From the NCBI GenBank assembly GCA_902785935.1, contig CADAAN010000006.1:4309-68308 (forward strand): a stretch of 64,000 nt of DNA, written 5' to 3'. The translations under genes were made by a program, and so were the position numbers. Below, piece after piece: positions 16,039 to 61,548 of the stretch. The stretch's first letter is position 1. Each line of letters begins with the position of its first letter. This DNA is from an uncultured Pseudomonadota bacterium (GTDB lineage: Bacteria; Pseudomonadota; Alphaproteobacteria; RF32; CAG-239). The notes under the pieces were generated by a model. The model did not search any database. It worked only from the letters and a program-made list of their open reading frames with translations, and was not told the origin of the DNA.

Positions 16039-16236
16039 TTGACTTTTATTTTAAAGTATGCCATAATCAAAAGCGTAACCAAAATGGTTATGGTGTTTAG
16101 ATAACACATTCGAGTTAAGGCTCCTTTGAAAGAGGAGTTGTTGATATAAGGCAATTTTTGCTCGAATAAGACAAACTGTAACTCGACAGTTATCTAGCTC
16201 CTCCATTTTGAGATTTTTCAAGATGGATTTTTTTTT
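16039..16236 (+). promoter_or_regulatory. Leader family A, copy A1: promoter + ~160-nt structured leader + terminator
   Basis: TTGACT (16039-16044), 17 nt, CATAAT (16062-16067). The conserved GTAACCAAAATGG starts at 16075. Covarying helices are described in the findings. The hairpin TCCATTTTGA/TCAAGATGGA plus T9 ends at 16236, 30 nt before the LRR gene. Confidence 0.7.
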
Positions 16237-16265
16237 CGATGGTTTAAAAAATAAGGAGAAAAAAT

Positions 16266-17324
16266 ATGAAGAAATATGTTTGGGTTTTTGGACTTATTTT
16301 AAGTTATAATGCACAAGCTTATGATTATAATGATTGTTTTGGTGCAAGCGGATGTCAGCCCTGTCCGAATAGTACGGACGGCAAATGTTTTTATGCTGTT
16401 GAAGGCAGCAAAATGACAATTTATGGCCCGACATCAACCGAACAAAATGCAGATGGCAGCTTAAAAGAAACAACATCGATTCCGCGTTATGCCTTTACCA
16501 ACAGCGATAATGCCAGCAATTTGCCGGAAAATATCACTTCTCTTGAAATAACAGGTAATATCACAACCGTTGAAGGTTATGCTTTTTGCTCTGCCCCTCT
16601 GACAAATGTACAATTTCCTGAGACACTTGAAACAATATCGGAATTGGCTTTTTGGAACAATAATTTATCACAAATCAATTTTCCTAATTCGCTTAAAAAT
16701 ATAGAAGAAGGTGCTTTTAATTGGAATCCATTTTCAGAAATTAATTTACCCGACGGATTAATGACGCTGGAGGGGTTAACAGGTGTTCCCCTGGGGCATG
16801 TTGTTATTCCGGATTCGATTGCAGAGGTTAAAGATGCGATTTTTTCTTCAAACTATCGTTTGCAATCATTGGTTGTCGGCGCAGACACAATGCTTGGCAA
16901 TATTTTTACCTACACAACAGGGGCTGTTAGTGTGCAATTTGATAAATTCAAGATGTTTTGCGCAGAAAATAACGGCTCATGCACAACAGCTTTGCAAAGT
17001 GCCGGTGCAACACAAGAACAAATTGCGCAAATACTGATAAGTTATACAAAAGATGACGCAACAGGCGTTTATCAAACAAGTGACGGAAAATATTATGCCG
17101 ATGTCAATTTGATGGCAAGACAAATGGCTTGCGAAAATAAGCAAAGCTGTGAAATTGCCAGTGCTGATATTCGGGCAGGTCGTCCTTTTGATATGAAAGG
17201 AAAATCTTACGCATCTGTCGATGATTTCATTCAAGGAAAATATATTCCAAAGCGTATCTATACCATCGATGAAGCCAATCATGTCGCGGGCAAGACAAAC
17301 ACTTTTACGATTCGGTATCGATAG
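16266..17324 (+). CDS. Secreted BspA-type leucine-rich-repeat protein with conserved C-terminal tag
   Basis: Signal peptide (...SYNAQA-YD), Cys-rich N-terminus, LRR_5-like repeats (ITSLEITGNITTVEGYAF...). C-terminus KRIYTIDEANHVAGKTNTFTIRYR. Confidence 0.85.
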   Translation: MKKYVWVFGLILSYNAQAYDYNDCFGASGCQPCPNSTDGKCFYAVEGSKMTIYGPTSTEQNADGSLKETTSIPRYAFTNSDNASNLPENITSLEITGNITTVEGYAFCSAPLTNVQFPETLETISELAFWNNNLSQINFPNSLKNIEEGAFNWNPFSEINLPDGLMTLEGLTGVPLGHVVIPDSIAEVKDAIFSSNYRLQSLVVGADTMLGNIFTYTTGAVSVQFDKFKMFCAENNGSCTTALQSAGATQEQIAQILISYTKDDATGVYQTSDGKYYADVNLMARQMACENKQSCEIASADIRAGRPFDMKGKSYASVDDFIQGKYIPKRIYTIDEANHVAGKTNTFTIRYR

Positions 17325-20593: not shown

Positions 20594-21493
20594 TTATCTG
20601 TACCTGATTTTGACCGAATTGACTTTGCCTGCGATGGCATTTGCTTCATCGATGGTGTAGATACGCTTTGGGATATAATCTCCTTTTTGCATCGCGGAAA
20701 TTGAGGCATAAGTTTTCTCACCGATACGATATTTCCCGTCAGGTGTCTTAGAATAATGAATAATTTTCGGGTTTTTACCCGTTTGAAGCGCTATTCTTGA
20801 ACATACCTCTTCGGAAGCCGCACAATATAGTTTTTGAAGGTTTGTGTTTGTAAAAGCTTCATCATCAATATTTGTCACACTATTCGGAATAACAAGTGTT
20901 TCAAGTGTTGAAATATCAGCAAGAGACGTCCAACCGATTGAGGTTACACCTTCAGGGATTTCCAGATTTTTAAGTTTTGTTCCGACAAAAGCTCTATCAG
21001 GAATTTCTGTTTGAGCCTGCCCAAGCATCAAATAATCTATTTTTGTTGCCGCAAAACTCCAAGCACCGACATATTGAAGATTTAGAGGTGTATTAATTTC
21101 TTTTAATAAATCTGCACCCTGAAATGCAGCACCGCCAATTTGTTCAATAGAATCCGGCAAATCAATACTGCTGATTTTTGTATAAGCAAGTGTATAACTA
21201 CCGATATTGGTTAAAGAATCCGGCAATGAGACACTTCGAATAGTTTCAAGTTTTTCAACCCATGGTGTTCCCGGCCTTTGGTTTTTAGAATCCCATTCGT
21301 AATTTGTCATTTTTCCGACAGGTGCATTTTCATCTTTGGCTTCAATTGAAAAAAGACCTGTCTGCTCATTTAGTCTGGCAAGGCAATTAGCGCCGCAATC
21401 CCAACAATTGATGTTTAAATCATCACCGCAAGTATTGACTGCTTTAGCTTGAGAGCTCATTGTCAGTAAAAAAAATAAAATCCATTTTCTCAT
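20594..21493 (-). CDS. Secreted BspA-type LRR protein with conserved C-terminal tag
   Basis: Signal peptide (..SSQAKA-VN), Cys-rich N-terminus, LRR_5 repeats. C-terminus KRIYTIDEANAIAGKVNSVKIRYR. Confidence 0.85.
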   Translation of the reverse strand: MRKWILFFLLTMSSQAKAVNTCGDDLNINCWDCGANCLARLNEQTGLFSIEAKDENAPVGKMTNYEWDSKNQRPGTPWVEKLETIRSVSLPDSLTNIGSYTLAYTKISSIDLPDSIEQIGGAAFQGADLLKEINTPLNLQYVGAWSFAATKIDYLMLGQAQTEIPDRAFVGTKLKNLEIPEGVTSIGWTSLADISTLETLVIPNSVTNIDDEAFTNTNLQKLYCAASEEVCSRIALQTGKNPKIIHYSKTPDGKYRIGEKTYASISAMQKGDYIPKRIYTIDEANAIAGKVNSVKIRYR

Positions 21494-21511
21494 ATTTTTT
21501 CTCCATTATGC

Positions 21512-21711
21512 AAAATAAAAAACCGTTTAAGATAAACCAAAAACGGAGGAGCTAAACGAACTGCACTAAATCAGTTAAGCTTATTCGAGGTATTAACCCT
21601 TATATCACTTACTCCTCTCTAAAGGAGTATATTTTTAGTGCAAGTGTCGTTTAAACACCGCAACCATTTTGGTTACGCTTTCATTTAAGCATATATCAAA
21701 ATACTTGTCAA
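21512..21711 (-). promoter_or_regulatory. Leader family A, copy A2: promoter + structured leader + terminator
   Basis: Minus strand: TTGACA (21711-21706), 17 nt, TTAAAT (21688-21683). GTAACCAAAATGGTTGCGGTG starts at 21676. The terminator CCGTTT/AAACGG plus T-run ends near 21512. Confidence 0.7.
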
Positions 21712-21846
21712 GATGTTTTTAGCCTCTGTCACAATCGGCAACAAAATGTGCATTGATAATTGGGGCTAACGCGGCAATATCAGTTGATATATCTGAAAAT
21801 CATTTTATAATCAGCGTATGTTTTTGAACTTTGGAGAACTTTAAAT

Positions 21847-29406: not shown

Positions 29407-30540
29407 CTAACGATATCGAATCGAGAAGGTGTTTGTTTTGCCCGCCACCTGATTCGCCTCATCGACGGTATAAATGCGCTTGCCCTCATAGCCGATAATC
29501 TTGCCATCTTCATAAATGGCCGTACTTCCATCGGCTAATTTTTTAGAGTATTTAACTGCCATAATGTCAGCAAAGTCATTCGGGTCAAGCCCTGCCGCCT
29601 CAATATTTCTTTGGCACTTAGCGACAGATCCGGCACACTGTATTTCTATGTTGCTTATATCAAGGTTATCGAAAGGAGAATAAATTCTGTCATAACTAAA
29701 AAATACTTCACAGCTATCCATTTCATATGTACAGCCGGCTTCTAAAGCTTTACTATAAAGTTGTGTATAATCTTCTTCGCTCATATGGCTACGGTTATTT
29801 TCTACATTTTCTAAGCTGTAAAAATCATCTTCTATCACATATCTGCTGAATGCAAAATTAAAATCATCTGATACTGTGATTCTTTCAAGATTTTTAATAC
29901 CCTTAAAAGCACCTTCATCAATATACTCAACCGAATCTGGCAATGTAAGGCTTATCAAACCTGACATACCCATAAAAGCATCTCTCTCTATATTTGTAAC
30001 CGAATCCGGAATAGTAAGATTAGTAACGTTTCTCATATACGCAAATGCAGTATCTTCAATATTTTTCAGTGAATTTGGTAAAGTTAAATTTGTAACAGCA
30101 GTAACATCATAAAATGCACCGCTACCGATATCTTCCACCGCATTACCGATTGTTAAATTTGTTACGTTAATCATATTACTAAAAGCACGATCACCAATAG
30201 AAACCACAGAATCTGAAATTTCAATGGATGTAGCATTTGTAGCTTCTCTAAAAGCATTATTTCCAATTGTCGTTATACCTTTTTCTACAACAACAGAGGT
30301 GATATCTTCGCGAATAGCATGCCATGGCATACTGTAATGATACCAACCAGAATAATTCTTATTTTCAAAATCATCCATAGCACCAGTGCCGGAAATAGTC
30401 AAAATACCGCTATCCGTATCCAAGCTCCAATAGCAATTCTCGCCGCATTTTTTGTAGCCGCTGTTTGTACCAATAATATCTGCTTTGACGCCTGAGGATA
30501 ACAAAATAAATCCCATCATCAGAATACATTTATTTTTCAT
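29407..30540 (-). CDS. Secreted BspA-type LRR protein with conserved C-terminal tag
   Basis: Signal peptide (..SSGVKA-DI) and about 7 LRR_5 repeats (TNLTIPDSVTNIERDAFMGM...). C-terminus KRIYTVDEANQVAGKTNTFSIRYR. Confidence 0.9.
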   Translation of the reverse strand: MKNKCILMMGFILLSSGVKADIIGTNSGYKKCGENCYWSLDTDSGILTISGTGAMDDFENKNYSGWYHYSMPWHAIREDITSVVVEKGITTIGNNAFREATNATSIEISDSVVSIGDRAFSNMINVTNLTIGNAVEDIGSGAFYDVTAVTNLTLPNSLKNIEDTAFAYMRNVTNLTIPDSVTNIERDAFMGMSGLISLTLPDSVEYIDEGAFKGIKNLERITVSDDFNFAFSRYVIEDDFYSLENVENNRSHMSEEDYTQLYSKALEAGCTYEMDSCEVFFSYDRIYSPFDNLDISNIEIQCAGSVAKCQRNIEAAGLDPNDFADIMAVKYSKKLADGSTAIYEDGKIIGYEGKRIYTVDEANQVAGKTNTFSIRYR

Positions 30541-30564: not shown

Positions 30565-30864
30565 AATATAAAAAAGTTTAACCGCGCCTTTTTAAGTGCG
30601 GCGGGGAGTGAAGAAATCATGTAAACCTAAATGACTCTTGCAACCTTTAGAATAACTCTTGTACATCCTTTGCAAGCTCCCCAACCAAAACTTTGGGGAT
30701 AATCGGCATTTTATACAAAAACACCTTCAAAACAAACAGTGTTATCCGTCACTGAGGTTTACAAAAGCTTCTTCAAAGCTCCGCACCCAATACATAGGCA
30801 CTAAATGATAAGATTTCTCCCATCACTTAAGATTTATTAGAACACGTTTTGATTTAATTGTCAA
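30565..30864 (-). promoter_or_regulatory. Leader family B, copy B1: promoter + ~255-nt structured leader + terminator
   Basis: Minus strand: TTGACA (30864-30859), 17 nt, TCTAAT (30841-30836). Conserved blocks and covarying helices are shared with 41695-41952 and 61258-61513. A hairpin plus T-run lies near 30571-30606. Confidence 0.7.
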
Positions 30865-38122: not shown

Positions 38123-39226
38123 ATGGCCGGATTTTTTAAAAAACATCTCAAAAATTCTTCGGCGATGAAAAAAAACGCTCCGGCGCCGCATTATGCCGCC
38201 ATCGATTTGGGAACAAACTCTTGTCGTTTGGTGATTGCAACCCCGACCCCGACGTCTTTTCATGTCGTTGAAACTTTTTCGAAAATTACACGCTTGGGTG
38301 AAGGAATTATTAAGGACAATCAACTTTCAAAAGCGGCCATGCGTCGCACGGTCAATACATTAAAAGTCTGTCACAGCGTCATGAGTGAATATGCCCCGAT
38401 TGAAAGCTCGCGTTTTGTTGCAACGGCAGCCTGCAGACGCGCCAAAAATATTGATGAATTTTTAAATATGGTACATAAAGAAGCCGGCATCAATCTGGAA
38501 ATTATTTCACCTAAAGAAGAATCGCGGCTGGCAGTTGTCGGTTGTGTGCCGCTTTTAAACAGGAACATTAAACGCGCATTGATTTTTGATATCGGCGGCG
38601 GTTCGACGGAAATTTCGCTTGCACGCATTACCGAAGACGGCAAAACCTTTATTGAAGGGTATGTGTCTTTGCCTTATGGTGTCGTAACAATTTCAGAAGC
38701 TTTTCCAAATCAGGAAATGACAAGCCTTGCCTATAATACGATTATTGAGCGTACGCAAAATATCTTATCTGAATTTGATGCCAAACACCATATTTTTGAT
38801 GCGATTGAAAATCAAGAAATTCAGGTCATCGGCACATCAGGGACAGTCACGGTTTTGGGTGCGGTGCATTTGGGACTTTCAAGATATAACCGTTCTGCGG
38901 TTGACGGCCTGTCAATTTCAAGGGTGGATATCGAAAATGTCATCAACAAAATCAAAAATATGGGAGATGCCGGCCGGCGCAAGCATCGGTGCATCGGCCC
39001 GTCAAAAGCTGATTTGACAATTTCGGGTTGTGCAATCATTGAAGCTTTGATGACAAGCTTTCCGATATCAGAAATTACGATTGCCGACAGAGGCATCCGT
39101 GAAGGTATTTTGCTTGATATGATTCATAACAAAAAACATCACCAAAAGCCGTTTAAGAAACACTTTAGAAAATATCCGTATTTTAAGAGAAAGAAAAATA
39201 ATGAAAAAAAATATAGCGAGCATTGA
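38123..39226 (+). CDS. Ppx/GppA-family phosphatase
   Basis: AAIDLGTNSCRLVIA and FDIGGGSTEISL motifs (ASKHA fold). Confidence 0.8.
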   Translation: MAGFFKKHLKNSSAMKKNAPAPHYAAIDLGTNSCRLVIATPTPTSFHVVETFSKITRLGEGIIKDNQLSKAAMRRTVNTLKVCHSVMSEYAPIESSRFVATAACRRAKNIDEFLNMVHKEAGINLEIISPKEESRLAVVGCVPLLNRNIKRALIFDIGGGSTEISLARITEDGKTFIEGYVSLPYGVVTISEAFPNQEMTSLAYNTIIERTQNILSEFDAKHHIFDAIENQEIQVIGTSGTVTVLGAVHLGLSRYNRSAVDGLSISRVDIENVINKIKNMGDAGRRKHRCIGPSKADLTISGCAIIEALMTSFPISEITIADRGIREGILLDMIHNKKHHQKPFKKHFRKYPYFKRKKNNEKKYSEH

Positions 39227-40130
39227 TTTAGGATCCAATTCTTGTCGTTTGCGCATTGCAAATGAAAAAGGTGAAGTGCTTTATATGGATTCAAAACCCA
39301 CAATGCTCGGTCAGGGACTTCACAAAACGGGAATACTGAGCGAAGAATCATTCATGCGCGGGCAGAAAGCTTTGAGCGAATTTGCCTGTTTGATGAAAAA
39401 ATATGATGTCAAATCATATCGCGCCATCACGACAGAAGCCTGCAGATCAGCTTTAAACGGCTCTGATTTTATCCGTATGATTGAAAAAGAAACGGGTATT
39501 GTGCTTGAAATAATTGATGCCAAAGAAGAGGCGCGTCTGAATTTAAAAGGAGCAAGCCTCAATGCCCCGAAAGACAAAGAATATATCGCCCTTTATGATT
39601 TGGGCGGTGCTTCGACGGAAATTTCCCTGAGTAAAAATGACGGCAAGTGTCAAATTTTGCACACCGTTTCTATCCCTTGGGGCGCACGCAACGCAGCAGA
39701 AGCATATTGCTTGCGTGAATTTTCGCAGAAACAAGCTCACCGTTTAAGCACGGACATCAAAAAATATGTCGATGATTTTATGAAAAAATGTGATTTTGAA
39801 AAATATCGCGATAAATGCTGTTTGCTTGCAACCTCAAGCACACCTCTTCGCCTTTGCGCCATGGTCAAAAACGACGGAGAATATTCAAGAGACAAAAATG
39901 ACGGTGCATGCGTTATGTGCTTTGATTTTGATAAAGCAATTGATGCGGTGTGCCACATGGATTTACATCAAAGACAGCAATCCGCCTATATCGGCGAGGA
40001 TCGAGCGCCGATTTTTATTGCCGCCGGAATTATTTTTCAGACAATATACAAACAGCTTGGTTTTAATCAGATGATTGTATCATTTAAAGGTGCTCAAGAT
40101 GCGATTATAGAGGAGTTATGCCATGGCTAA
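39201..40130 (+). CDS. Second Ppx/GppA-family phosphatase paralog
   Basis: ASIDLGSNSCRLRIA and YDLGGASTEISL motifs. Overlaps the previous gene by 26 nt. Confidence 0.75.
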   Translation: MKKNIASIDLGSNSCRLRIANEKGEVLYMDSKPTMLGQGLHKTGILSEESFMRGQKALSEFACLMKKYDVKSYRAITTEACRSALNGSDFIRMIEKETGIVLEIIDAKEEARLNLKGASLNAPKDKEYIALYDLGGASTEISLSKNDGKCQILHTVSIPWGARNAAEAYCLREFSQKQAHRLSTDIKKYVDDFMKKCDFEKYRDKCCLLATSSTPLRLCAMVKNDGEYSRDKNDGACVMCFDFDKAIDAVCHMDLHQRQQSAYIGEDRAPIFIAAGIIFQTIYKQLGFNQMIVSFKGAQDAIIEELCHG

Positions 40131-40812
40131 AATGACAAAGTCGGCAAAACTGATTCGCGGGCAAAAAACCCTGACGGTCAGAGTTAAAACGTCAAAATAT
40201 CGCAAAACATCATCAAACAGATGGCTTGAGCGGCAATTAAACGATCCTTATGTGCTTCAATCAAAACGCCTCGGTTATCGCTCAAGAGCGGCATTTAAGC
40301 TTATACAGCTTGATGAAAAATACCATTTTTTAGGCAAGGGCAAAACCATTGTCGATTTAGGGTGCGCCCCGGGCGGTTGGACGCAAATTGCGGTTGAAAA
40401 AAACAAGGGCACGGGGCAGGTTGTCGGTATTGATATCTTAGAAACACAGCCTGTTGAAGGGGCAACGCTGATTTGTCAGGATTTTACCTCTGCTGATGCA
40501 CCGGAAAAGCTCAAAGCACTTTTAAAAGGTCCTGCCGATATTGTGATGAGCGATATGGCTGCCAATACAACGGGACACCAACAAACCGACCACTTGCGCA
40601 CAATCGCACTTGTTGAGGCCGCATATGCTTTTGCCAAAGAAGTTTTGGCTCCAAACGGTATATTTATCGCCAAGGTCTTTCAGGGCGGCGCAGAAGGTGA
40701 ACTTTTGGCAGATATGAAAAAAAATTTTGCGAAAGTATCACATTTCAAACCTGATGCCAGCCGCCAAACGTCGCCCGAAATATATGTCGTCGCCCAGGGA
40801 TTTAGGAAATAA
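40123..40812 (+). CDS. rlmE: 23S rRNA (U2552-2'-O)-methyltransferase RlmE/FtsJ
   Basis: SRAAFKLIQLDEKY and DLGCAPGGWTQ motifs, with a C-terminal KPDASRQTSPEIYVVA. Confidence 0.9.
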   Translation: MAKMTKSAKLIRGQKTLTVRVKTSKYRKTSSNRWLERQLNDPYVLQSKRLGYRSRAAFKLIQLDEKYHFLGKGKTIVDLGCAPGGWTQIAVEKNKGTGQVVGIDILETQPVEGATLICQDFTSADAPEKLKALLKGPADIVMSDMAANTTGHQQTDHLRTIALVEAAYAFAKEVLAPNGIFIAKVFQGGAEGELLADMKKNFAKVSHFKPDASRQTSPEIYVVAQGFRK

Positions 40813-40815
40813 AAC

Positions 40816-41673
40816 TTAGCGATACCGAATCGAAAAAGTGTTTGTCTTGCCTGCAACTTGATTGGCCTCATCGATGGTGTAAATGCGCTTTGGTGCGTAA
40901 TGTTGATTGTAAATATCATTTGGGGAACTGTAAAACCTTCCGTTATAATAATAACCTGTTGAGTATTTTTGATAAAATTTAATTTTATCGCCAATTTCTT
41001 CATCGTCTAAAAGAGCCTGACAACTGGCATTTGTGTCTTCGCAATAAATAGCCAAAGATTCTGACAATGCTTTATTTATGGAATTAGTAAGCATTTTTTT
41101 TGTAATCATGGTCGAACCGGATATGGTTAAAGATTTCAATTCCGTGCCGCCTAATGTCCAATCTTCATCTTCAAGAATAACATCTTTGGGTAATACAATA
41201 TCTTCAACTTTTGTACGATTAAAATTAGCCCCTCCGATAAAAGTCAGACTATTTGGTAAATTAATTTTTTCAAGTGATTGAGTATCATTAAAAGCACCAC
41301 CCGAAATCTTTTGAAGTCCTTCGGGTAAAACAGCCTCTCGCAAATCAAACAAATATTCAAAAGCAGAAGAACCAATTGATTTAAATATTTTATCACTTGA
41401 TTCGTTTTCGATAACGACTTTATAAATTTGTGAAGAATAGGCTCCCCAATCGGCTGTATTATGGCACCATGGGTCACAGCTGTGACTATAATTTTTCATA
41501 TCACCATAACCTTTAATGGTTAATGTATTCGTGTTTTTATCAAGTGTTGCTGTACAACTATCATTTGAGGTTGCCGCACAGTCAAATGTACAAATATCAC
41601 TGTTATCACAAAGTGTATCAGCATATGTATTAAAAGCCGTAAATATACAAAAAATATAAATTACTTTTCTCAT
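40816..41673 (-). CDS. Secreted BspA-type LRR protein with conserved C-terminal tag
   Basis: I placed the true start at ATG 41673 (MRKVIYIFCIFTAFNTYA-DT, with GGAGAA 7 nt upstream). The 67-codon N-terminal extension in the track ORF runs through the conserved leader RNA. C-terminus KRIYTIDEANQVAGKTNTFSIRYR. Confidence 0.85.
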   Translation of the reverse strand: MRKVIYIFCIFTAFNTYADTLCDNSDICTFDCAATSNDSCTATLDKNTNTLTIKGYGDMKNYSHSCDPWCHNTADWGAYSSQIYKVVIENESSDKIFKSIGSSAFEYLFDLREAVLPEGLQKISGGAFNDTQSLEKINLPNSLTFIGGANFNRTKVEDIVLPKDVILEDEDWTLGGTELKSLTISGSTMITKKMLTNSINKALSESLAIYCEDTNASCQALLDDEEIGDKIKFYQKYSTGYYYNGRFYSSPNDIYNQHYAPKRIYTIDEANQVAGKTNTFSIRYR

Positions 41674-41694
41674 ATCTTTTCTCCAAAATTTATT

Positions 41695-41987
41695 AAACGA
41701 AAAAACCACTCTAAAATGAGCGGCGGGGAGTAAAAGAATCATGTAATGGAAAATGACTTCCGTAACCTTTAGGTCAAAACCTTGAACATACGCCACGGAC
41801 TCCCCAACCAAAATATCGGGGATAAGCATTGTTTTAAAATAAAAAAACAACACTAAAACAGCGTTATCTCTCACTGTCCATTACAAAAGCTCTTTTAAAG
41901 CCCCGCACCCTTTTCGGGTACTTGATAGAAAAAGCCAAAACCTTCCTATCTGATTTATATTATTACATATCAAAAACATCTTGTCAA
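41695..41987 (-). promoter_or_regulatory. Leader family B, copy B2: promoter + structured leader + terminator
   Basis: Minus strand: TTGACA (41987-41982), 17 nt, AATAAT (41964-41959). Conserved blocks as in B1 and B3. The terminator CCGCTC/GAGTGG plus T5 lies near 41697-41726. Confidence 0.7.
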
Positions 41988-42025
41988 GAAATTTTAAAAT
42001 ATTTTAATACGTGATTTGGCTGTGA

Positions 42026-42213
42026 ACGTAAATAAAAGCTTAGAATGAGCTAGATGCGACGGAAGCTCTTTTACGAAGTGTACAAAAGAGGTTGTATACG
42101 TAAATAAAAGCTTAGAATGAGTCAAGTACGACGTACGGCCGCTTGCGCAGTGTACAAAAAGGGTACATAAGCAAGCGGCCGCACAAGTAATTGGCCATTA
42201 TAAGCTTTTATTT
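42026..42213. repeat. Nested repeat element: 72-bp tandem duplication plus an inverted terminal copy overlapping the nusG stop
   Basis: ACGTAAATAAAAGCTTAGAATGAG occurs at 42026-42049 and 42098-42121. GTGTACAAAA lies 52 nt after each. The inverted copy TAAGCTTTTATTT is at 42201-42213. There is an internal GC-rich hairpin GGCCGCTTGC/GCAAGCGGCC (42137-42180). Confidence 0.6.
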
Positions 42214-42741
42214 TACTTTTTCTACTTGAGAAAATTCTAATTCCACCGGCGTGTAACGCCCGAAAATGGAAACTGAAACTTTAAGACGCGTCTTTTCTGT
42301 GTCTACTTCTTCGACAACACCGACGAAGGAGGCAAACGGACCATCTGTCACACGAACATTTTCACCGATTTCAAAGGTGGCCACAACTTCAGGACGCTCA
42401 ACACCTTCCTGCATTTGCTTTAAGATGTGATCAACCTCTTTATCGCTGATCGGCTGAGGTTTGTTGCGGCTACCCAAAAATCCGCTGACACGAGGCGTAT
42501 TTTTCACGACATGCCAAACATCATCGGACATTTCCATTTTCACTAAGATATAGCCGGGGAAAAACTTGCGCTCTGAAGCAACTTTTTTGCCTTTTTTGAC
42601 CTCAACGACATCTTCGGTCGGTACCAAGACGTCTAAAATGCGATCTTCCATCTTTTTAATGACAGCCTGTTCTTTTAAAGAATCGGCAACTTTTTTTTCA
42701 GAACCGGAATAAACATTTATCACATACCAACGAGCACTCAT
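42208..42741 (-). CDS. nusG: Transcription termination/antitermination factor NusG
   Basis: NGN domain (RWYVINVYSGSEKKV) and KOW domain (GENVRVTDGPFASFVGVVEEV). Follows secE. Confidence 0.95.
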   Translation of the reverse strand: MSARWYVINVYSGSEKKVADSLKEQAVIKKMEDRILDVLVPTEDVVEVKKGKKVASERKFFPGYILVKMEMSDDVWHVVKNTPRVSGFLGSRNKPQPISDKEVDHILKQMQEGVERPEVVATFEIGENVRVTDGPFASFVGVVEEVDTEKTRLKVSVSIFGRYTPVELEFSQVEKVK

Positions 42742-42743
42742 CG

Positions 42744-42938
42744 TTACACCCCTAAACCTAAAATAAGTTTAACAACCCAAGCCAAGACAACATCAACCGC
42801 AAAGAAAAAAATCGCCGCAAGCGTCACAATAAACAGAACAACAGTCGTGACCTGCGTAACCTCTTTCTTTGAAGGCCAAGTGATTTTTTTCACCTCTTGG
42901 CGAACTTGTCTGAAAAACTGTATCGGACTGACTTTCAA
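42744..42938 (-). CDS. secE: Preprotein translocase subunit SecE
   Basis: 64 aa with a single C-terminal TM helix. Shows the conserved tRNA-Trp-secE-nusG synteny. TTG start. Confidence 0.85.
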   Translation of the reverse strand: MKVSPIQFFRQVRQEVKKITWPSKKEVTQVTTVVLFIVTLAAIFFFAVDVVLAWVVKLILGLGV

Positions 42939-42981: not shown

Positions 42982-43057
42982 TGGCAGGGGCGGCAGGACT
43001 TGAACCCACGACACTCGGTTTTGGAGACCGATGTTCTACCAACTGAACTACGCCCCT
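42982..43057 (-). tRNA. tRNA-Trp (CCA)
   Basis: The 76-nt reverse complement folds as a cloverleaf: AGGGGCG acceptor stem, anticodon loop CTCCAAA, T loop TTCAAGT, encoded CCA. Confidence 0.9.
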
Positions 43058-45086: not shown

Positions 45087-45986
45087 TTATCGATACCTTA
45101 TTTTGAAAGAATTAACCTTGCCCGCGACGGCATTCGCCTCGTCGATGGTATAAATGCGGATATCGGCACGAGCAGGAACAGATGGCAAGACAGATGGAGA
45201 AACAGTTCCTGATGCTGAAGCAATTTTTGCTCTGCAAGAAGTCTCCGTTTCGCAACCCTCTTCCGTTCCTCCCAACATCATTTTTGCTGCTGAAGAGTAA
45301 TAATTATCACCAACTTTATATACCCCATCTTCTTTAGTATATTGTTCAATTTTTGACGTCCCATGGCCTTTACAAATATTAACATCTTCGCAAAAAAGTT
45401 TTGTGTTGCTGGCAAACGGAAAGTTAACAATTGTTGTTCCTCTGCTAATAATGACATTGTTCAAGGATTCATTTTGAAAGCTACTTCCAAAAGCATCCTG
45501 ATTAATTTTCGTTACACCGCTTAAATCAATATCATGCAGGTTGGTTGTATATGTAAAAGCGCCACTTCCAATTTCTTTAACTCCTGTAAAATCCACACTC
45601 GACAAAGCAGATCGCGAAAAAGCGGTTCCGCCGATTGATGTAACACCGCTTGCAAAAGCAAGTGAGGTTACACCTTGAGGAAGCATTGATGTCCCATAAG
45701 TGTCATCTGCAAAAGCTGATCTCGGTACTTTGTATGTGAGATTGCCGTTTGAATCTGTTGAAGTAATTGATGACCCCTGAATGGTCATTTTTCCGTTATC
45801 AATAGTGTAGTATGTGAGCATATGAGAGGCATAGCTACTGGCTTGCGACAAACATCCTTCGCCATAAGTTGAAACACAAGCCTGACAAAATGTGTTCCCT
45901 TCAGGGCACTCAATTAAAGCAATGGAAATTTTTGAAAATGAAACTGTTGCTACTAATGCCGAGGTTAAAAAAATATTTCTAGTCAT
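45087..45986 (-). CDS. Secreted BspA-type LRR protein with conserved C-terminal tag
   Basis: N-terminal signal-like segment, Cys-rich region, LRR_5 repeats (VTSLAFASGVTSIGGTAFSRS...). C-terminus IRIYTIDEANAVAGKVNSFKIRYR. Confidence 0.85.
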   Translation of the reverse strand: MTRNIFLTSALVATVSFSKISIALIECPEGNTFCQACVSTYGEGCLSQASSYASHMLTYYTIDNGKMTIQGSSITSTDSNGNLTYKVPRSAFADDTYGTSMLPQGVTSLAFASGVTSIGGTAFSRSALSSVDFTGVKEIGSGAFTYTTNLHDIDLSGVTKINQDAFGSSFQNESLNNVIISRGTTIVNFPFASNTKLFCEDVNICKGHGTSKIEQYTKEDGVYKVGDNYYSSAAKMMLGGTEEGCETETSCRAKIASASGTVSPSVLPSVPARADIRIYTIDEANAVAGKVNSFKIRYR

Positions 45987-46020
45987 AACTTTTCTCCTAT
46001 TTTTCTTATTTACACTGTTG

Positions 46021-46212
46021 AAAAAATCACTTCAGAAGATATCCGAAGTGGGAGCTAGAAAACTGTATACATTCAGTCAGACTTATTCGACATTTCAAAA
46101 CGCTTATATCATCTACTCCCGGTAAAAGGAGCGATATGTATAAGGTGTTTTCTAGACACCGCAACCATTTTGGTTACTTTTTTATTTTCACATAAAAAAC
46201 GTAGCTTGTCAA
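46021..46212 (-). promoter_or_regulatory. Leader family A, copy A3: promoter + structured leader + terminator
   Basis: Minus strand: TTGACA (46212-46207), 17 nt, GAAAAT (46189-46184). GTAACCAAAATGGTTGCGGTG starts at 46177. The terminator CACTTCGGA/TTCTGAAGTG plus T6 ends at 46021. Confidence 0.7.
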
Positions 46213-52843: not shown

Positions 52844-52863
52844 TGGTTATACCTTTCTTTCAT

Positions 52864-53061
52864 AAAAAAAATTCCGTTTTATATAACCAAAAACGGAGGA
52901 GCTAACTAACTGCCATTGTACAGCTTGCTTTATTCGCGCATCACTAAAATACCTTATATCAGCAACTCCTCATCAAGGAGCTATACAATGGATGTGTTAG
53001 TTAAACACCGCAACCATTTTGGTTACATCCTGATTATTTCATACAAAAGCATAAAAGTCAA
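52864..53061 (-). promoter_or_regulatory. Leader family A, copy A4: promoter + structured leader + terminator (pilin-like gene)
   Basis: Minus strand: TTGACT (53061-53056), 17 nt, AATAAT (53038-53033). GTAACCAAAATGGTTGCGGTG starts at 53026. The terminator CCGTTTT/AAAACGG plus T8 ends at 52864. Confidence 0.7.
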
Positions 53062-59994: not shown

Positions 59995-60609
59995 TTAGTA
60001 GAATTTCCAAGAAACCGTTGCTTGTTCGGTGCATGTAGCTACAGCACCTGTACCCGAAGCTCCGCCCATCGGATAAGGTTTACCCTCATCAGCACCTAGT
60101 ACTTTACCTTTGGCATAATTTGTACCGGTAGAAGCTTCAATTTCTACACCGATAAAACCCGAACCGGCACCCGAACCAAAATCAGCCGTTGCAAGTGCAA
60201 TGCAAGCCTCCTTAGGTAATCCTTTGTAACTGATTACAAAGGCTGTTGGTTTTGCATCACCAGTAATTGCTGTATTGACAGCAGAAATTGTATTTGAAGT
60301 AGCCATAGCTTCTAAAATTTGAACACTTCCTTTAAATGGGTTTGTTAAAGCGGCAGGAGATGTACCCATTACAGGCGGAACAATTCCTAAACTGACAGCT
60401 TGTGTCGCCAAGCCGGCGTAGTTACCCTGCTGTCCATACATTGTTCGGATGTTTGTCACAAGCATTGTGATTTGTTCCATTGTCGTGTTGAGTTTGTGTT
60501 TGAACATCGCTTTTGAATAGCCTGCCAAACCGCCGGCTGACAAAACACCGATAATCGCCAAAACACCAAGCATTTCAACCATTGAACGACCATTTTGATT
60601 ATTCTTCAT
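59995..60609 (-). CDS. Type IV pilin / pseudopilin-like protein (distal gene of pair)
   Basis: MKNNQNG-RSMVEMLGVLAIIGVLSAGG. The first ~65 aa are nearly identical to the upstream paralog. C-terminus ..VSWKFY. Confidence 0.8.
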   Translation of the reverse strand: MKNNQNGRSMVEMLGVLAIIGVLSAGGLAGYSKAMFKHKLNTTMEQITMLVTNIRTMYGQQGNYAGLATQAVSLGIVPPVMGTSPAALTNPFKGSVQILEAMATSNTISAVNTAITGDAKPTAFVISYKGLPKEACIALATADFGSGAGSGFIGVEIEASTGTNYAKGKVLGADEGKPYPMGGASGTGAVATCTEQATVSWKFY

Positions 60610-60648
60610 TTTTTTATTCCTTTATTAAACTGTTAAAAACTTATATGA

Positions 60649-61230
60649 TTAATAGAACTTCCAAATGATTGTGTTTTTTGCACCTGCACAATCACTAACT
60701 GCATCAGCCATTTCATACGCTTTTCCCTCAGCACGTTTGTTTGCAATGCCTGTACCAATGACTATAGAAGATCCATCTGCTGAGGCTGCTGCAGTACCTG
60801 TTTTATCGGCTATAACACCTACAAAACCTGAACCTGCGCCTGAACCAAAGTCAGACGTTGCCAAAGCAATACAAGCTTCTGTTGGTAAACCATCAAAAGC
60901 GACTGTAAATGATTCATTGTTTGTACCTGTAGCAACAATATTAACATTACCCTTAAATGGGTTTGTAAGTGTGGCTCCACTACCCATAACAGCCGGAACA
61001 ACACCAAGACTTGATGCTTCTGTATTTGTTAATCCCGCATAATTTCCCTGTGTGCCGTACATTGTACGGATATTCGTCACAAGCATTGTGATTTGATCCA
61101 TGGTGGTATTGAGTTTGTGCTTGAACATGGCCTTTGAATAACCTGCCAAACCGCCGGCTGACAAAACACCGATGATGGCAAGTACGCCAAGCATTTCGAC
61201 CATACTACGGCCGTTTTCGTTATTTTTCAT
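60649..61230 (-). CDS. Type IV pilin / pseudopilin-like protein (proximal gene of pair)
   Basis: MKNNENG-RSMVEMLGVLAIIGVLSAGG, Glu at +5. C-terminus ..IIWKFY. Confidence 0.8.
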   Translation of the reverse strand: MKNNENGRSMVEMLGVLAIIGVLSAGGLAGYSKAMFKHKLNTTMDQITMLVTNIRTMYGTQGNYAGLTNTEASSLGVVPAVMGSGATLTNPFKGNVNIVATGTNNESFTVAFDGLPTEACIALATSDFGSGAGSGFVGVIADKTGTAAASADGSSIVIGTGIANKRAEGKAYEMADAVSDCAGAKNTIIWKFY

Positions 61231-61257: not shown

Positions 61258-61548
61258 GTAAAACCGCCCCTAAAAGAGCGGTCGGAGAGTTAAACAATCA
61301 TGGATTAGAAAATGACTCCGACAACCTTTAGATTAAAAATCCTGAACATTCGCTACCGGCTCCCCGACACTTTTCGGGGATAATGTGCTATATTTAAAAT
61401 AAAAAATAACACCACATCAATACAGTGTTATCCTCACTGTCTAATCCAAGAGTTGTTTAAAACTCCGCGCCCGTCTCAGGCACTTGATAGAAAAAGTCAC
61501 CTCTTTCTATCCGACCATTATTTAACAACACAAATGCTTAATTGTCAA
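61258..61548 (-). promoter_or_regulatory. Leader family B, copy B3: promoter + structured leader + terminator (pilin-like operon)
   Basis: Minus strand: TTGACA (61548-61543), 17 nt, TTAAAT (61525-61520). Conserved blocks and covarying helices as in B1 and B2. The hairpin CCGC/GCGG plus T-rich tract lies near 61258-61285. Confidence 0.7.

Follow-up and report, generated by a model that had tools for sequence, protein, structure and literature searches.

The closest known regulon to the one described here is that of C. difficile, in which class II cyclic di-GMP (c-di-GMP) riboswitches are transcriptional ON switches of a type IV pilin operon and of the adhesins CD2831 and CD3246 (PMC11477304). 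A strikingly similar set of genes lies behind an RNA element that we call leader family B, found on the minus strand at positions 41987-41695 of a 64-kb stretch of DNA from an uncultured alphaproteobacterium (contig CADAAN010000006.1; the whole stretch is referred to as the window). Like the c-di-GMP riboswitches (GEMM-I, RF01051, and c-di-GMP-II, RF01786), family B leaders occur in multiple copies per genome and would switch expression at a leader terminator. They differ in being about three times larger and in having a five-way junction and pseudoknots. A search of positions 41600-42250 at E-values up to 10 gave no match to RF01051 or RF01786, which places the leader outside both families. 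A search for the GGDEF motif in ~0.45 Mb of lineage DNA (the window and leader-bearing loci) came up empty, a weak negative that is uninformative at this sample size.

Other described systems share parts of this architecture. First, T-box leaders (RF00230) resemble family B in their length of ~250 nt, their many copies per genome, their terminator/antiterminator competition and their hypervariable, copy-specific element within a conserved scaffold. However, the hypervariable loop of family B pairs in cis rather than with a tRNA anticodon, the T-box sequence and Stem I are missing, and the genes downstream encode adhesin-like proteins and pilins rather than aminoacyl-tRNA synthetases or amino-acid functions. 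With LRR_5 and pilin genes downstream and no RF00230 match, the leader is not a T-box. Second, cobalamin riboswitches (RF00174) have a large aptamer built on a multi-helix junction and rely on a long-range loop pairing for communication between sensor and expression platform. Family B also combines a multi-helix junction with long-range loop pairing, but it lacks a B12 box, has no Rfam match and stands in an unrelated gene context, and thus falls outside this family too. Third, the structured RNAs put (phage HK022) and EAR (Bacillus), which lie close to the beginning of surface-structure operons, affect read-through of terminators by modifying RNA polymerase to ignore distant ones in long operons. 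Family B RNAs likewise lie early in surface-structure transcription units and would act on read-through, but each has its own adjacent terminator with an overlapping helix, and usually a single gene follows.

Searches for the RNA itself were negative. With Rfam 15, the whole window yielded two tRNAs only at gathering thresholds, positions 41600-42250 yielded only sub-threshold chance matches at E-values up to 10, and six other copies yielded nothing on the leader at E-values up to 5. A literature search found no description of this RNA, and a paper on 224 motifs mentions the rumen only for Fibrobacteres and ROOL, with nothing relevant. Judged from sequence comparisons, family B is a previously undescribed family and a predicted new class of cis-acting, attenuating, riboswitch-like leader. 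To our knowledge, few large and complex bacterial leader RNAs are represented by over 100 covarying sequences and yet lack an Rfam entry. In the past, such RNAs have usually proved to be riboswitches for important signals or RNAs of unusual biochemistry.

Fold and copies of the leader

Between the promoter and the terminator, the minus strand carries about 250 nt of structured RNA, with a minimum free energy (MFE) for the isolated leader of -93 kcal/mol (z = -6.55 relative to dinucleotide shuffles). The predicted fold consists of hairpins P1, P2 and P3, followed by a five-way junction that is closed by P4 and holds P5, P6, P7 and P8 (Table 1).

What is the evidence for this fold? First, the main covariation test used a structure-blind MAFFT alignment of 116 copies, with controls in which the 3' partners were slid by 1-3 columns. 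In this alignment 86.5% of cells are paired, compared with 40-53% for slid partners, and both sides of a pair have changed in 1065 cells, compared with 309 ± 21 in shuffles. Second, when 93 distinct, independent metagenome sequences were aligned to a covariance model (CM), 98.0% of cells were paired (slid controls, at most 45.5%), with both-side changes in 42 of 49 pairs. We put the MAFFT result first because a CM-guided alignment leans towards the model's own structure. Third, RNAalifold predicts 49 pairs from 26 copies, with compensatory changes in 31 of them. The original prediction of a conserved leader RNA that carries both a promoter and a terminator is borne out by these data, since the helices are retained through compensatory changes. 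Support is strongest for P4, in which 98-99% of cells are paired and each of the eight pairs has 23-75 both-side changes. P1 is paired in 91% of cells in the MAFFT alignment, with both-side changes at all nine pairs, and in 95.5% of cells in the independent set; P2 is 97.8% paired, with both-side changes at five of six pairs (MAFFT), and P3 is 98.2% paired (independent set). P7 is 98.6-99.2% paired, its fifth pair changing from G-C to A-U, and P8 is about 98-98.6% paired, with covariation at 8/8 pairs. The variable hairpin P6 is part of the MFE fold; it aligns poorly across subfamilies (53-66% paired, MAFFT) and is missing from some copies (L047, L106 and L160). G-U pairs are frequent and fit a transcript of the minus strand only.

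Invariant bases are concentrated in unpaired regions: AUGU.CA.G and C.AAAG in the P8 internal loop, UCAU in J8/4 (the junction between P8 and P4), UG.UU after P4, and runs of C or G. A variant subfamily, represented by metagenome loci L130, L204, L123, L112, L176, L110 and others, has GAUACC..GGUAUCC..GGAUGCC..GGUAUU in place of P5 and P6. It retains the GGAU/AUCC pairing and, like the main family, could form three consecutive hairpins that exclude one another.

The predicted promoter, TTGACA-17 nt-AATAAT, is present as first described, with TG upstream of the -10 hexamer; it matches the consensus at 11 of 12 positions and fits the sigma-70 extended -10 class. Across 78 copies, a T-rich stretch, TTGACA, a 17-nt spacer and TGnNNTAAT stand at a fixed distance upstream of P1, the -35 positions being conserved at T85% T97% G64% A71% C70% A56%. 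This fixed distance suggests that the RNA begins a few bases before P1, and the transcript start is expected near 41952.

The window contains three copies of the leader: the two described originally (at 41695-41987 and 61258-61548; the latter is copy 1) and a further one at 30864-30570 (copy 3). All are on the minus strand, each directly upstream of a gene. Copy 1 shares the architecture of the 41695-41987 copy, as had been proposed, with an identical order of blocks, 74.7% identity over 261 nt (blastn) and a mean column identity of 82% in a pairwise alignment; copy 3 is 72% identical over 193 nt (blastn). The block CAGTGAN{1,2}GATAACRCTGT occurs three times in the window where 0.00 occurrences are expected, which, together with the z-score of the fold, argues that the copies are not due to chance. 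A CM built from 26 copies, from the window and from metagenome-assembled genomes (MAGs), scores the window copies at 247-263 bits and no other window site above 20 bits. The original prediction had proposed a CM as a check, and the same model recovers 94 metagenome copies outside its training set, at 79-281 bits and with pairing kept.

Further copies of family B come from uncultured rumen Alphaproteobacteria. About 80% of the hits in a scan for the P5 block, with one genome per species, were chance matches in unrelated taxa, and the true loci were found only in the rumen Alphaproteobacteria MAGs RUG11221, RGIG10106, RGIG9974, RGIG5118 and SRR873604_bin.135. Of the 24 copies that a profile search confirmed in these MAGs, RUG11221 by itself holds at least 19. 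A metagenome scan with the P8-loop pattern returned 113 loci, 105 of which hold a real copy, and nhmmer brought the total to 132 copies from 129 sources (rumen Alphaproteobacteria MAGs and metagenome contigs). No real copy was found in a scan of viral contigs, where the single match was a chance one within a phage DNA polymerase gene.

Long-range pairings and a putative switch

Two sets of long-range pairings are superimposed on the nested fold. The first joins L3, the loop of P3, to linker J, which lies ~150 nt further downstream. In the 41695-41987 copy UAAAAGA faces UCUUUUA; other copies have UACCAAA/UUUGGUA, UGCUAA/UUAGCA or UUCGAAA/UUUCGAA. Loop and linker are hypervariable among copies, with complementarity maintained: 114 of 116 copies have at least five (5-8) contiguous Watson-Crick pairs, with a mean of 6.4 compared with 4.0 when loops and linkers are shuffled between copies. 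With a 5-bp P3 and one or two unpaired loop bases, the pairing would have the geometry of a classical H-type pseudoknot.

The second set involves strand c, the 3' arm of P7 (GGGGAG; UUGGGGAG), which has two mutually exclusive partners: strand b, within P7, or strand d (CUCCCCG) together with the start of the terminator 5' arm. Since P7 and the c:d helix both need the same run of four G's, only one of them can form at a time. Strand c and strand d (CUCCCC) are paired in 98.8% of cells; one pair is AU in 82 copies, UA in 11, UG in 10 and GU in nine, and another is GC in 109 and AU in five. Outward of this helix, further pairs join the 3' part of the P7 loop to the terminator 5' arm (for example, UGGUCGGGGAG/CUCUCCGACCG and UGAUCGGGGAG/CUCCCUGAUCG), and this pairing accounts for the conservation of the 3' half of the P7 loop. 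Extension pair 232:327 is GC in 67 copies, AU in 17, GU in 15 and something else in 16; the extended antiterminator helix as a whole is 90% paired across the family, with AU/UA/UG/GU and GC/AU variation. In the 41695-41987 copy, UGG(U)UGGGGAGU pairs with ACUCCCCGCCG (41731-41721) over 11 bp with one bulge, and captures GCCG of the terminator arm.

The terminator reported originally, CCGCTC/GAGTGG followed by T5, is present, although these are only the inner 6 bp of a 7-bp stem, GCCGCUC/GAGUGGU. With four G-C pairs in that stem, a 6-nt loop and TTTTT, it has the features of an intrinsic terminator. Family-wide, the hairpin directly follows the run of four C's in strand d in 89 of 112 copies, has a median energy of -9.8 kcal/mol and is followed by at least five U within the next 8 nt in 92 of 112. 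In copy 3 (30570-30864, minus strand), UAAACUUUUUU follows the hairpin instead of an immediate U run.

How might these pairings act? Transcription would begin a few bases before P1, from the promoter just upstream. If P7, the proposed anti-antiterminator, held strand c, the terminator would form and transcription would stop near 41700. If strand c were instead engaged by strand d and the terminator arm, in a helix of 11 bp in the 41695-41987 copy, the terminator would not be nucleated and polymerase would enter the gene. An effector, either a small molecule or a protein, would choose between these states by acting on the invariant unpaired core, made up of the P8 internal loop, J8/4 and AUGAUU. 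Rough energies are -11.9 kcal/mol for P7, -10 for the terminator and -17 for the antiterminator duplex, so that the two states are roughly balanced and an effector could shift the outcome.

Segment a (GGRG, the 5' arm of P3) appears to take part in a second alternative. With its P3 partner it forms AU in 43 copies, GC in 35 and GU in 28; with strand d it forms GC in 59, AU in 35, AC in 15 and GU in six. It thus covaries with both partners, as expected of alternative folds, and the single-sequence MFE fold adopts the a:d pairing. The second alternative is likely to set a:d plus L3:J against P3 plus c:d. Two further pairings were considered. GAUAA in the P5 loop and UUAUC at 41825-41821, just 5' of P7, are paired in 94% of cells, which is uninformative because both are nearly invariant. 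An antiterminator formed from the P2 3' arm and J2/3, where GYGCGG resembles the terminator 3' arm, was dropped since by inspection it does not covary with the variable terminator arms.

Taken together, the pairings make it probable that family B is a cis-regulatory leader RNA with a terminator/antiterminator switch. Several observations weigh against this reading. Fewer than five U follow the hairpin in 20 of 112 copies, including window copy 3 (TAAACTTT) and copy 1 (TTACGTAA). In copies of the CCCCG-CCGC type (the 41695-41987 copy and about a quarter of the others), antiterminator and terminator overlap by 3-4 nt and a bulge is needed. Strand d also pairs with segment a, leaving the exact pair of alternative folds unsettled. 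The pseudoknot energies are rough duplex estimates. Finally, many copies are paralogues in a few genomes, so that there are fewer independent events than the counts of changed cells suggest.

Putatively controlled genes and possible effectors

What might the leader control? The gene behind the 41695-41987 copy encodes a protein with Pfam LRR_5 (E = 7.5e-14) and a C-terminal tag, ...KRIYTIDEANQVAGKTNTFSIRYR. The copy 3 gene (29407-30540) encodes a 377-aa protein, also with LRR_5 (E = 2.4e-50), and both proteins terminate in ...IYT(I/V)DEANQVAGKTNTFSIRYR. The copy 1 gene (ATG 61230) matches Pfam PilS and Bundlin and is type IVb pilin-like. Across the 118 copies with an identifiable downstream open reading frame (ORF), ~85% of the genes encode signal-peptide proteins, mostly with the Cys-rich BspA-like N-terminus CGxNCxWxLD..GxLTISGTGxM, and 15 (~13%) encode type IV pilin-like proteins (G-RSMVEML). 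The tag KRIYT(I/V)(D/E)EA...I(R/K)Y(R/K) terminates at least 51 of 87 complete ORFs, or ~57 with relaxed matching. A few diverged copies precede other genes: XRE regulators (L047, L106 and L160) and, by N-terminal resemblance only, glycosyltransferases, SLOG-like proteins and one partial gatB candidate. The same leader before many secreted BspA-like LRR and type IV pilin genes would place a surface-protein regulon under one signal.

The tag is found in five window proteins as a stretch of ~24 aa, KRIYT(I/V)(D/E)EAxxxxxxxNxxxI(R/K)Y(R/K)-COOH, and may be a sorting or secretion signal. Behind copy 1, at 59995-61230 on the minus strand, two tandem type IVb pilin-like genes (ATG 61230 and ATG 60609) have one leader in common; only a short intergenic gap precedes the second, and the pair looks like a two-gene operon.

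The leader also bears on where the LRR gene starts. The six-frame ORF 40816-41874 (352 aa, GTG start) runs through the leader, and 41874 to 41673 spans exactly 67 codons, which the original prediction regarded as non-coding. In only four of the 77 canonically spaced copies, the 41695-41987 copy among them, does the frame preceding the real ATG stay open for at least 60 codons; the median is eight codons, and indels interrupt the frame in the other copies. The GGAGAA ribosome-binding site (RBS) and ATG 41673 lie where they had been placed, and the short leader-to-ATG distance, with a GGAG-type RBS, is the same in all 77 copies. The protein read from this ATG (MRKVIYIFCIFTAFNTYA-DTLC...) has, judged by eye, the signal-peptide-like N-terminus that had been predicted. 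The 67-codon extension is thus best read as a chance open frame across an RNA element. A leader peptide starting at the conserved AUGAUU was likewise rejected: the upstream ORF (uORF) varies from 2 to >300 codons, and a length that is not conserved argues against AUGAUU as a start.

What, then, might the leader sense? Family B has two general features of riboswitches: a structured sensor domain with covariation and invariant unpaired nucleotides, and, on computational evidence, a platform with mutually exclusive terminator and antiterminator pairings. We suggest only tentatively that it is a true small-molecule riboswitch. A broader proposal, which we regard as speculative, is that family B and a shorter sister, family A, form a new riboswitch class that senses one signal, is present in at least 20 copies per genome, and turns on or off all the secreted BspA-like LRR adhesins and type IVb pilins of this rumen alphaproteobacterial lineage by means of an unusual, doubly pseudoknotted antiterminator. 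The signal could perhaps be a second messenger, or an envelope or host-contact cue.

The strongest alternative keeps the fold and switch as described and makes the effector a protein or another RNA, as in PyrR-, TRAP- and BglG-type attenuators or the tRNA-sensing T-box. The size of the RNA (~250 nt), its many invariant unpaired bases spread over several junctions and the conserved A(N)GGAUAA of the P5 loop would all suit such an effector, and the few leaders before XRE-type regulator genes (L047, L106 and L160) might feed back. However, no gene for an RNA-binding protein is consistently linked to the leaders examined, and Rfam shows no resemblance to known protein-binding attenuator motifs. 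We consider this version somewhat doubtful. The GGA of the P5 loop might suggest a CsrA-type site, but with only a single conserved GGA hairpin this idea was set aside.

It is rather unlikely that the element is a constitutive cassette, in which a strong promoter is followed by a structured 5' untranslated region that aids mRNA stability, translation or localisation and the hairpin is a fixed, leaky attenuator. P1 does lie at the extreme 5' end, like stabilising hairpins, the association is with exported proteins in general, and the antiterminator-terminator overlap is short in some copies. Yet the three mutually exclusive pairings (P7 versus c:d, P3 versus a:d) each covary and the P7 loop is conserved, and a static stabiliser needs neither; moreover, a constitutive terminator before every gene would be wasteful. 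Still less probable is a stand-alone gene for a trans-acting small RNA of ~250 nt that adjoins surface-protein genes by chance. Such a gene would have its own promoter and terminator, as the leader does, and 60-300 nt of extra sequence precedes the next ORF in about a quarter of copies, but the element is always co-oriented with the downstream gene, its short distance to the RBS is fixed in 77 copies, the 20-30 nt gap shows no sign of a second promoter, and the presence of at least 19 diverged copies in a single genome is easier to reconcile with a cis element. Finally, a DNA-level repeat (MITE- or REP-like, or a recombination element) or a true N-terminal coding extension is highly improbable, and in effect refuted, despite the many copies, the repeats that adjoin some of them and the frame that is open through the 41695-41987 copy, because compensatory changes whose G-U pairs fit just one strand are a mark of selection at the RNA level, terminal inverted repeats are missing, and only 4 of 77 copies have an open frame.

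If the riboswitch-like leader works as proposed, it would appear to bring all the adhesins and pilins of this uncultured rumen lineage under the control of one RNA sensor, which would offer a direct handle on the regulation of attachment in these bacteria. Recognising the leader also corrects gene starts, as for the 67-codon false extension here, and flags members of the regulon in metagenome assemblies.

Feature positions, neighbouring repeats and a second leader family

Table 1. Positions of the leader parts, related copies and neighbouring features, in window coordinates unless a locus (L number) is named
Feature	Position	Strand	Basis or remark
-35 hexamer TTGACA	41982..41987	-	sequence, 78-copy conservation
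Extended -10, TGT + AATAAT	41959..41967 (AATAAT 41964-41959)	-	17 nt past -35
P1 5'-terminal hairpin, GAUAGGAAG / UUUUCUAUC	41924..41950	-	covariation
P2 hairpin, GUACCC / GGGUGC	41905..41921	-	covariation
P3 hairpin; 5' arm = segment a GGGGCU	41887..41904	-	covariation
L3 (P3 loop) UAAAAGA	41897-41891	-	partner 41737-41731
P4 5' arm GUAAUGGA	41877..41884	-	pairs with 41750-41743; closes five-way junction around P5-P8
P5 hairpin, CAGUG / CGCUG, conserved loop A(N)GGAUAA	41859..41876	-	conserved block, covariation
P6 variable hairpin, GUGUUGUUU / AAACAAUGC	41826..41853	-	MFE fold
P7 hairpin; strand b CCCCGA 41821-41816, strand c UUGGGG 41807-41802	41802..41821	-	covariation
Putative antiterminator 5' strand UGG(U)UGGGGAGU	41799..41811	-	3' part of P7 loop + strand c
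P8, UCCGUGGC / GUUACGGA; invariant internal loop GUAUGUUCAAGG...CCUAAAGG	41759..41799	-	covariation
Junction J8/4 AGUCAUUU (invariant UCAU) + P4 3' arm UCCAUUAC	41743..41758	-	conservation, covariation
AUGAUU (invariant UG.UU), linker J UCUUUUA, strand d ACUCCCCG	41724..41742	-	pairing analyses
Linker J UCUUUUA, 3' strand of L3 pseudoknot	41737-41731	-	
Intrinsic terminator GCCGCUC-AUUUUA-GAGUGGU then UUUUU	41700..41724	-	stem 41724-41705, T5 41704-41700
RBS GGAGAA 41684-41679 + real start ATG 41673-41671	41671..41684	-	sequence, family spacing
Apparently spurious 67-codon N-terminal extension of six-frame ORF	41674..41874	-	frame statistics
Putatively controlled gene, 285-aa secreted BspA-type LRR protein	40816..41673	-	Pfam LRR_5, C-terminal tag
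Family B copy 1	61260..61548	-	upstream of type IVb pilin-like gene (ATG 61230); CM 263 bits
Family B copy 3 (new)	30570..30864	-	upstream of LRR_5 gene 29407-30540; CM 247 bits
Methyltransferase-like ORF	40123-40812	+	convergent, abuts LRR gene
nusG	42208-42741	-	Pfam NusG + KOW
secE-like ORF	42744-42938	-	
tRNA	42985-43057	-	Rfam
Tag-bearing C-terminus	17256-17324	+	
Tag-bearing C-terminus	20594-20662	-	
Tag-bearing C-terminus	29407-29475	-	
Tag-bearing C-terminus	40816-40884	-	
Tag-bearing C-terminus	45087-45155	-	
Leader family A (~190 nt)	21495-21715	-	probably the 'family A' of the original prediction
Leader family A	45990-46210	-	
Leader family A	16040-16262	+	
Leader family A	52848-53060	-	
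Extra sequence between terminator and ORF, examples	L069 606-640; L088 607-643; L029 2306-2340; L072 814-845		

In bacteria, nusG is usually followed by rplKA. Here, as the original prediction had noted, the leader and its LRR gene occupy that place: nusG ends at 42208, and neither rplK nor rplA is found within the 64-kb window. The leader-LRR unit may thus be an inserted cassette.

The nested repeat element described between nusG and the leader was also found, as a 72-nt tandem repeat with internal palindromes. It comprises two tandem units at 42018-42161 that are 75% identical, with an 18-nt arm inverted at 42196-42213. Related copies lie upstream of the leaders in L085 (several tandem units), L130 and L142, and the element looks like a small REP- or MITE-like repeat of the lineage. 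The 60-300 nt of extra sequence between terminator and ORF in about a quarter of copies (for example, GAGTCCCTTCTCGTCACCACTTTGAACGAAGCGAGAT, GTCACCCCT...) recurs among loci and may be another small inserted repeat.

Family A leaders precede three further tag-bearing LRR genes and another pilin gene. Like family B, they have a TTGACA promoter, a P2-like GUAACC/GGUUGC hairpin, a CUCC...GGAG hairpin, a terminator with a U run and a hairpin whose loop complements a linker that immediately precedes a C/U-rich strand; the loop/linker pairs are UAAACGA/UCGUUUA, CUAGAAAA/UUUUCUAG, UAGAUAA/UUAUCUA and UAACUAA/UUAGUUA. Unlike family B, they are ~100 nt shorter and lack equivalents of P1, P5 and P6. Family A has no Rfam match, and neither the family B profile HMM nor the CM detects the family A leaders in the window, so the kinship is architectural and homology is not demonstrated.

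Elsewhere in the window, at 38123-40130 on the plus strand, two adjacent paralogous ORFs have N-termini that look, by eye, like the Ppx/GppA type (AAIDLGTNSCRL / ASIDLGSNSCRLR).

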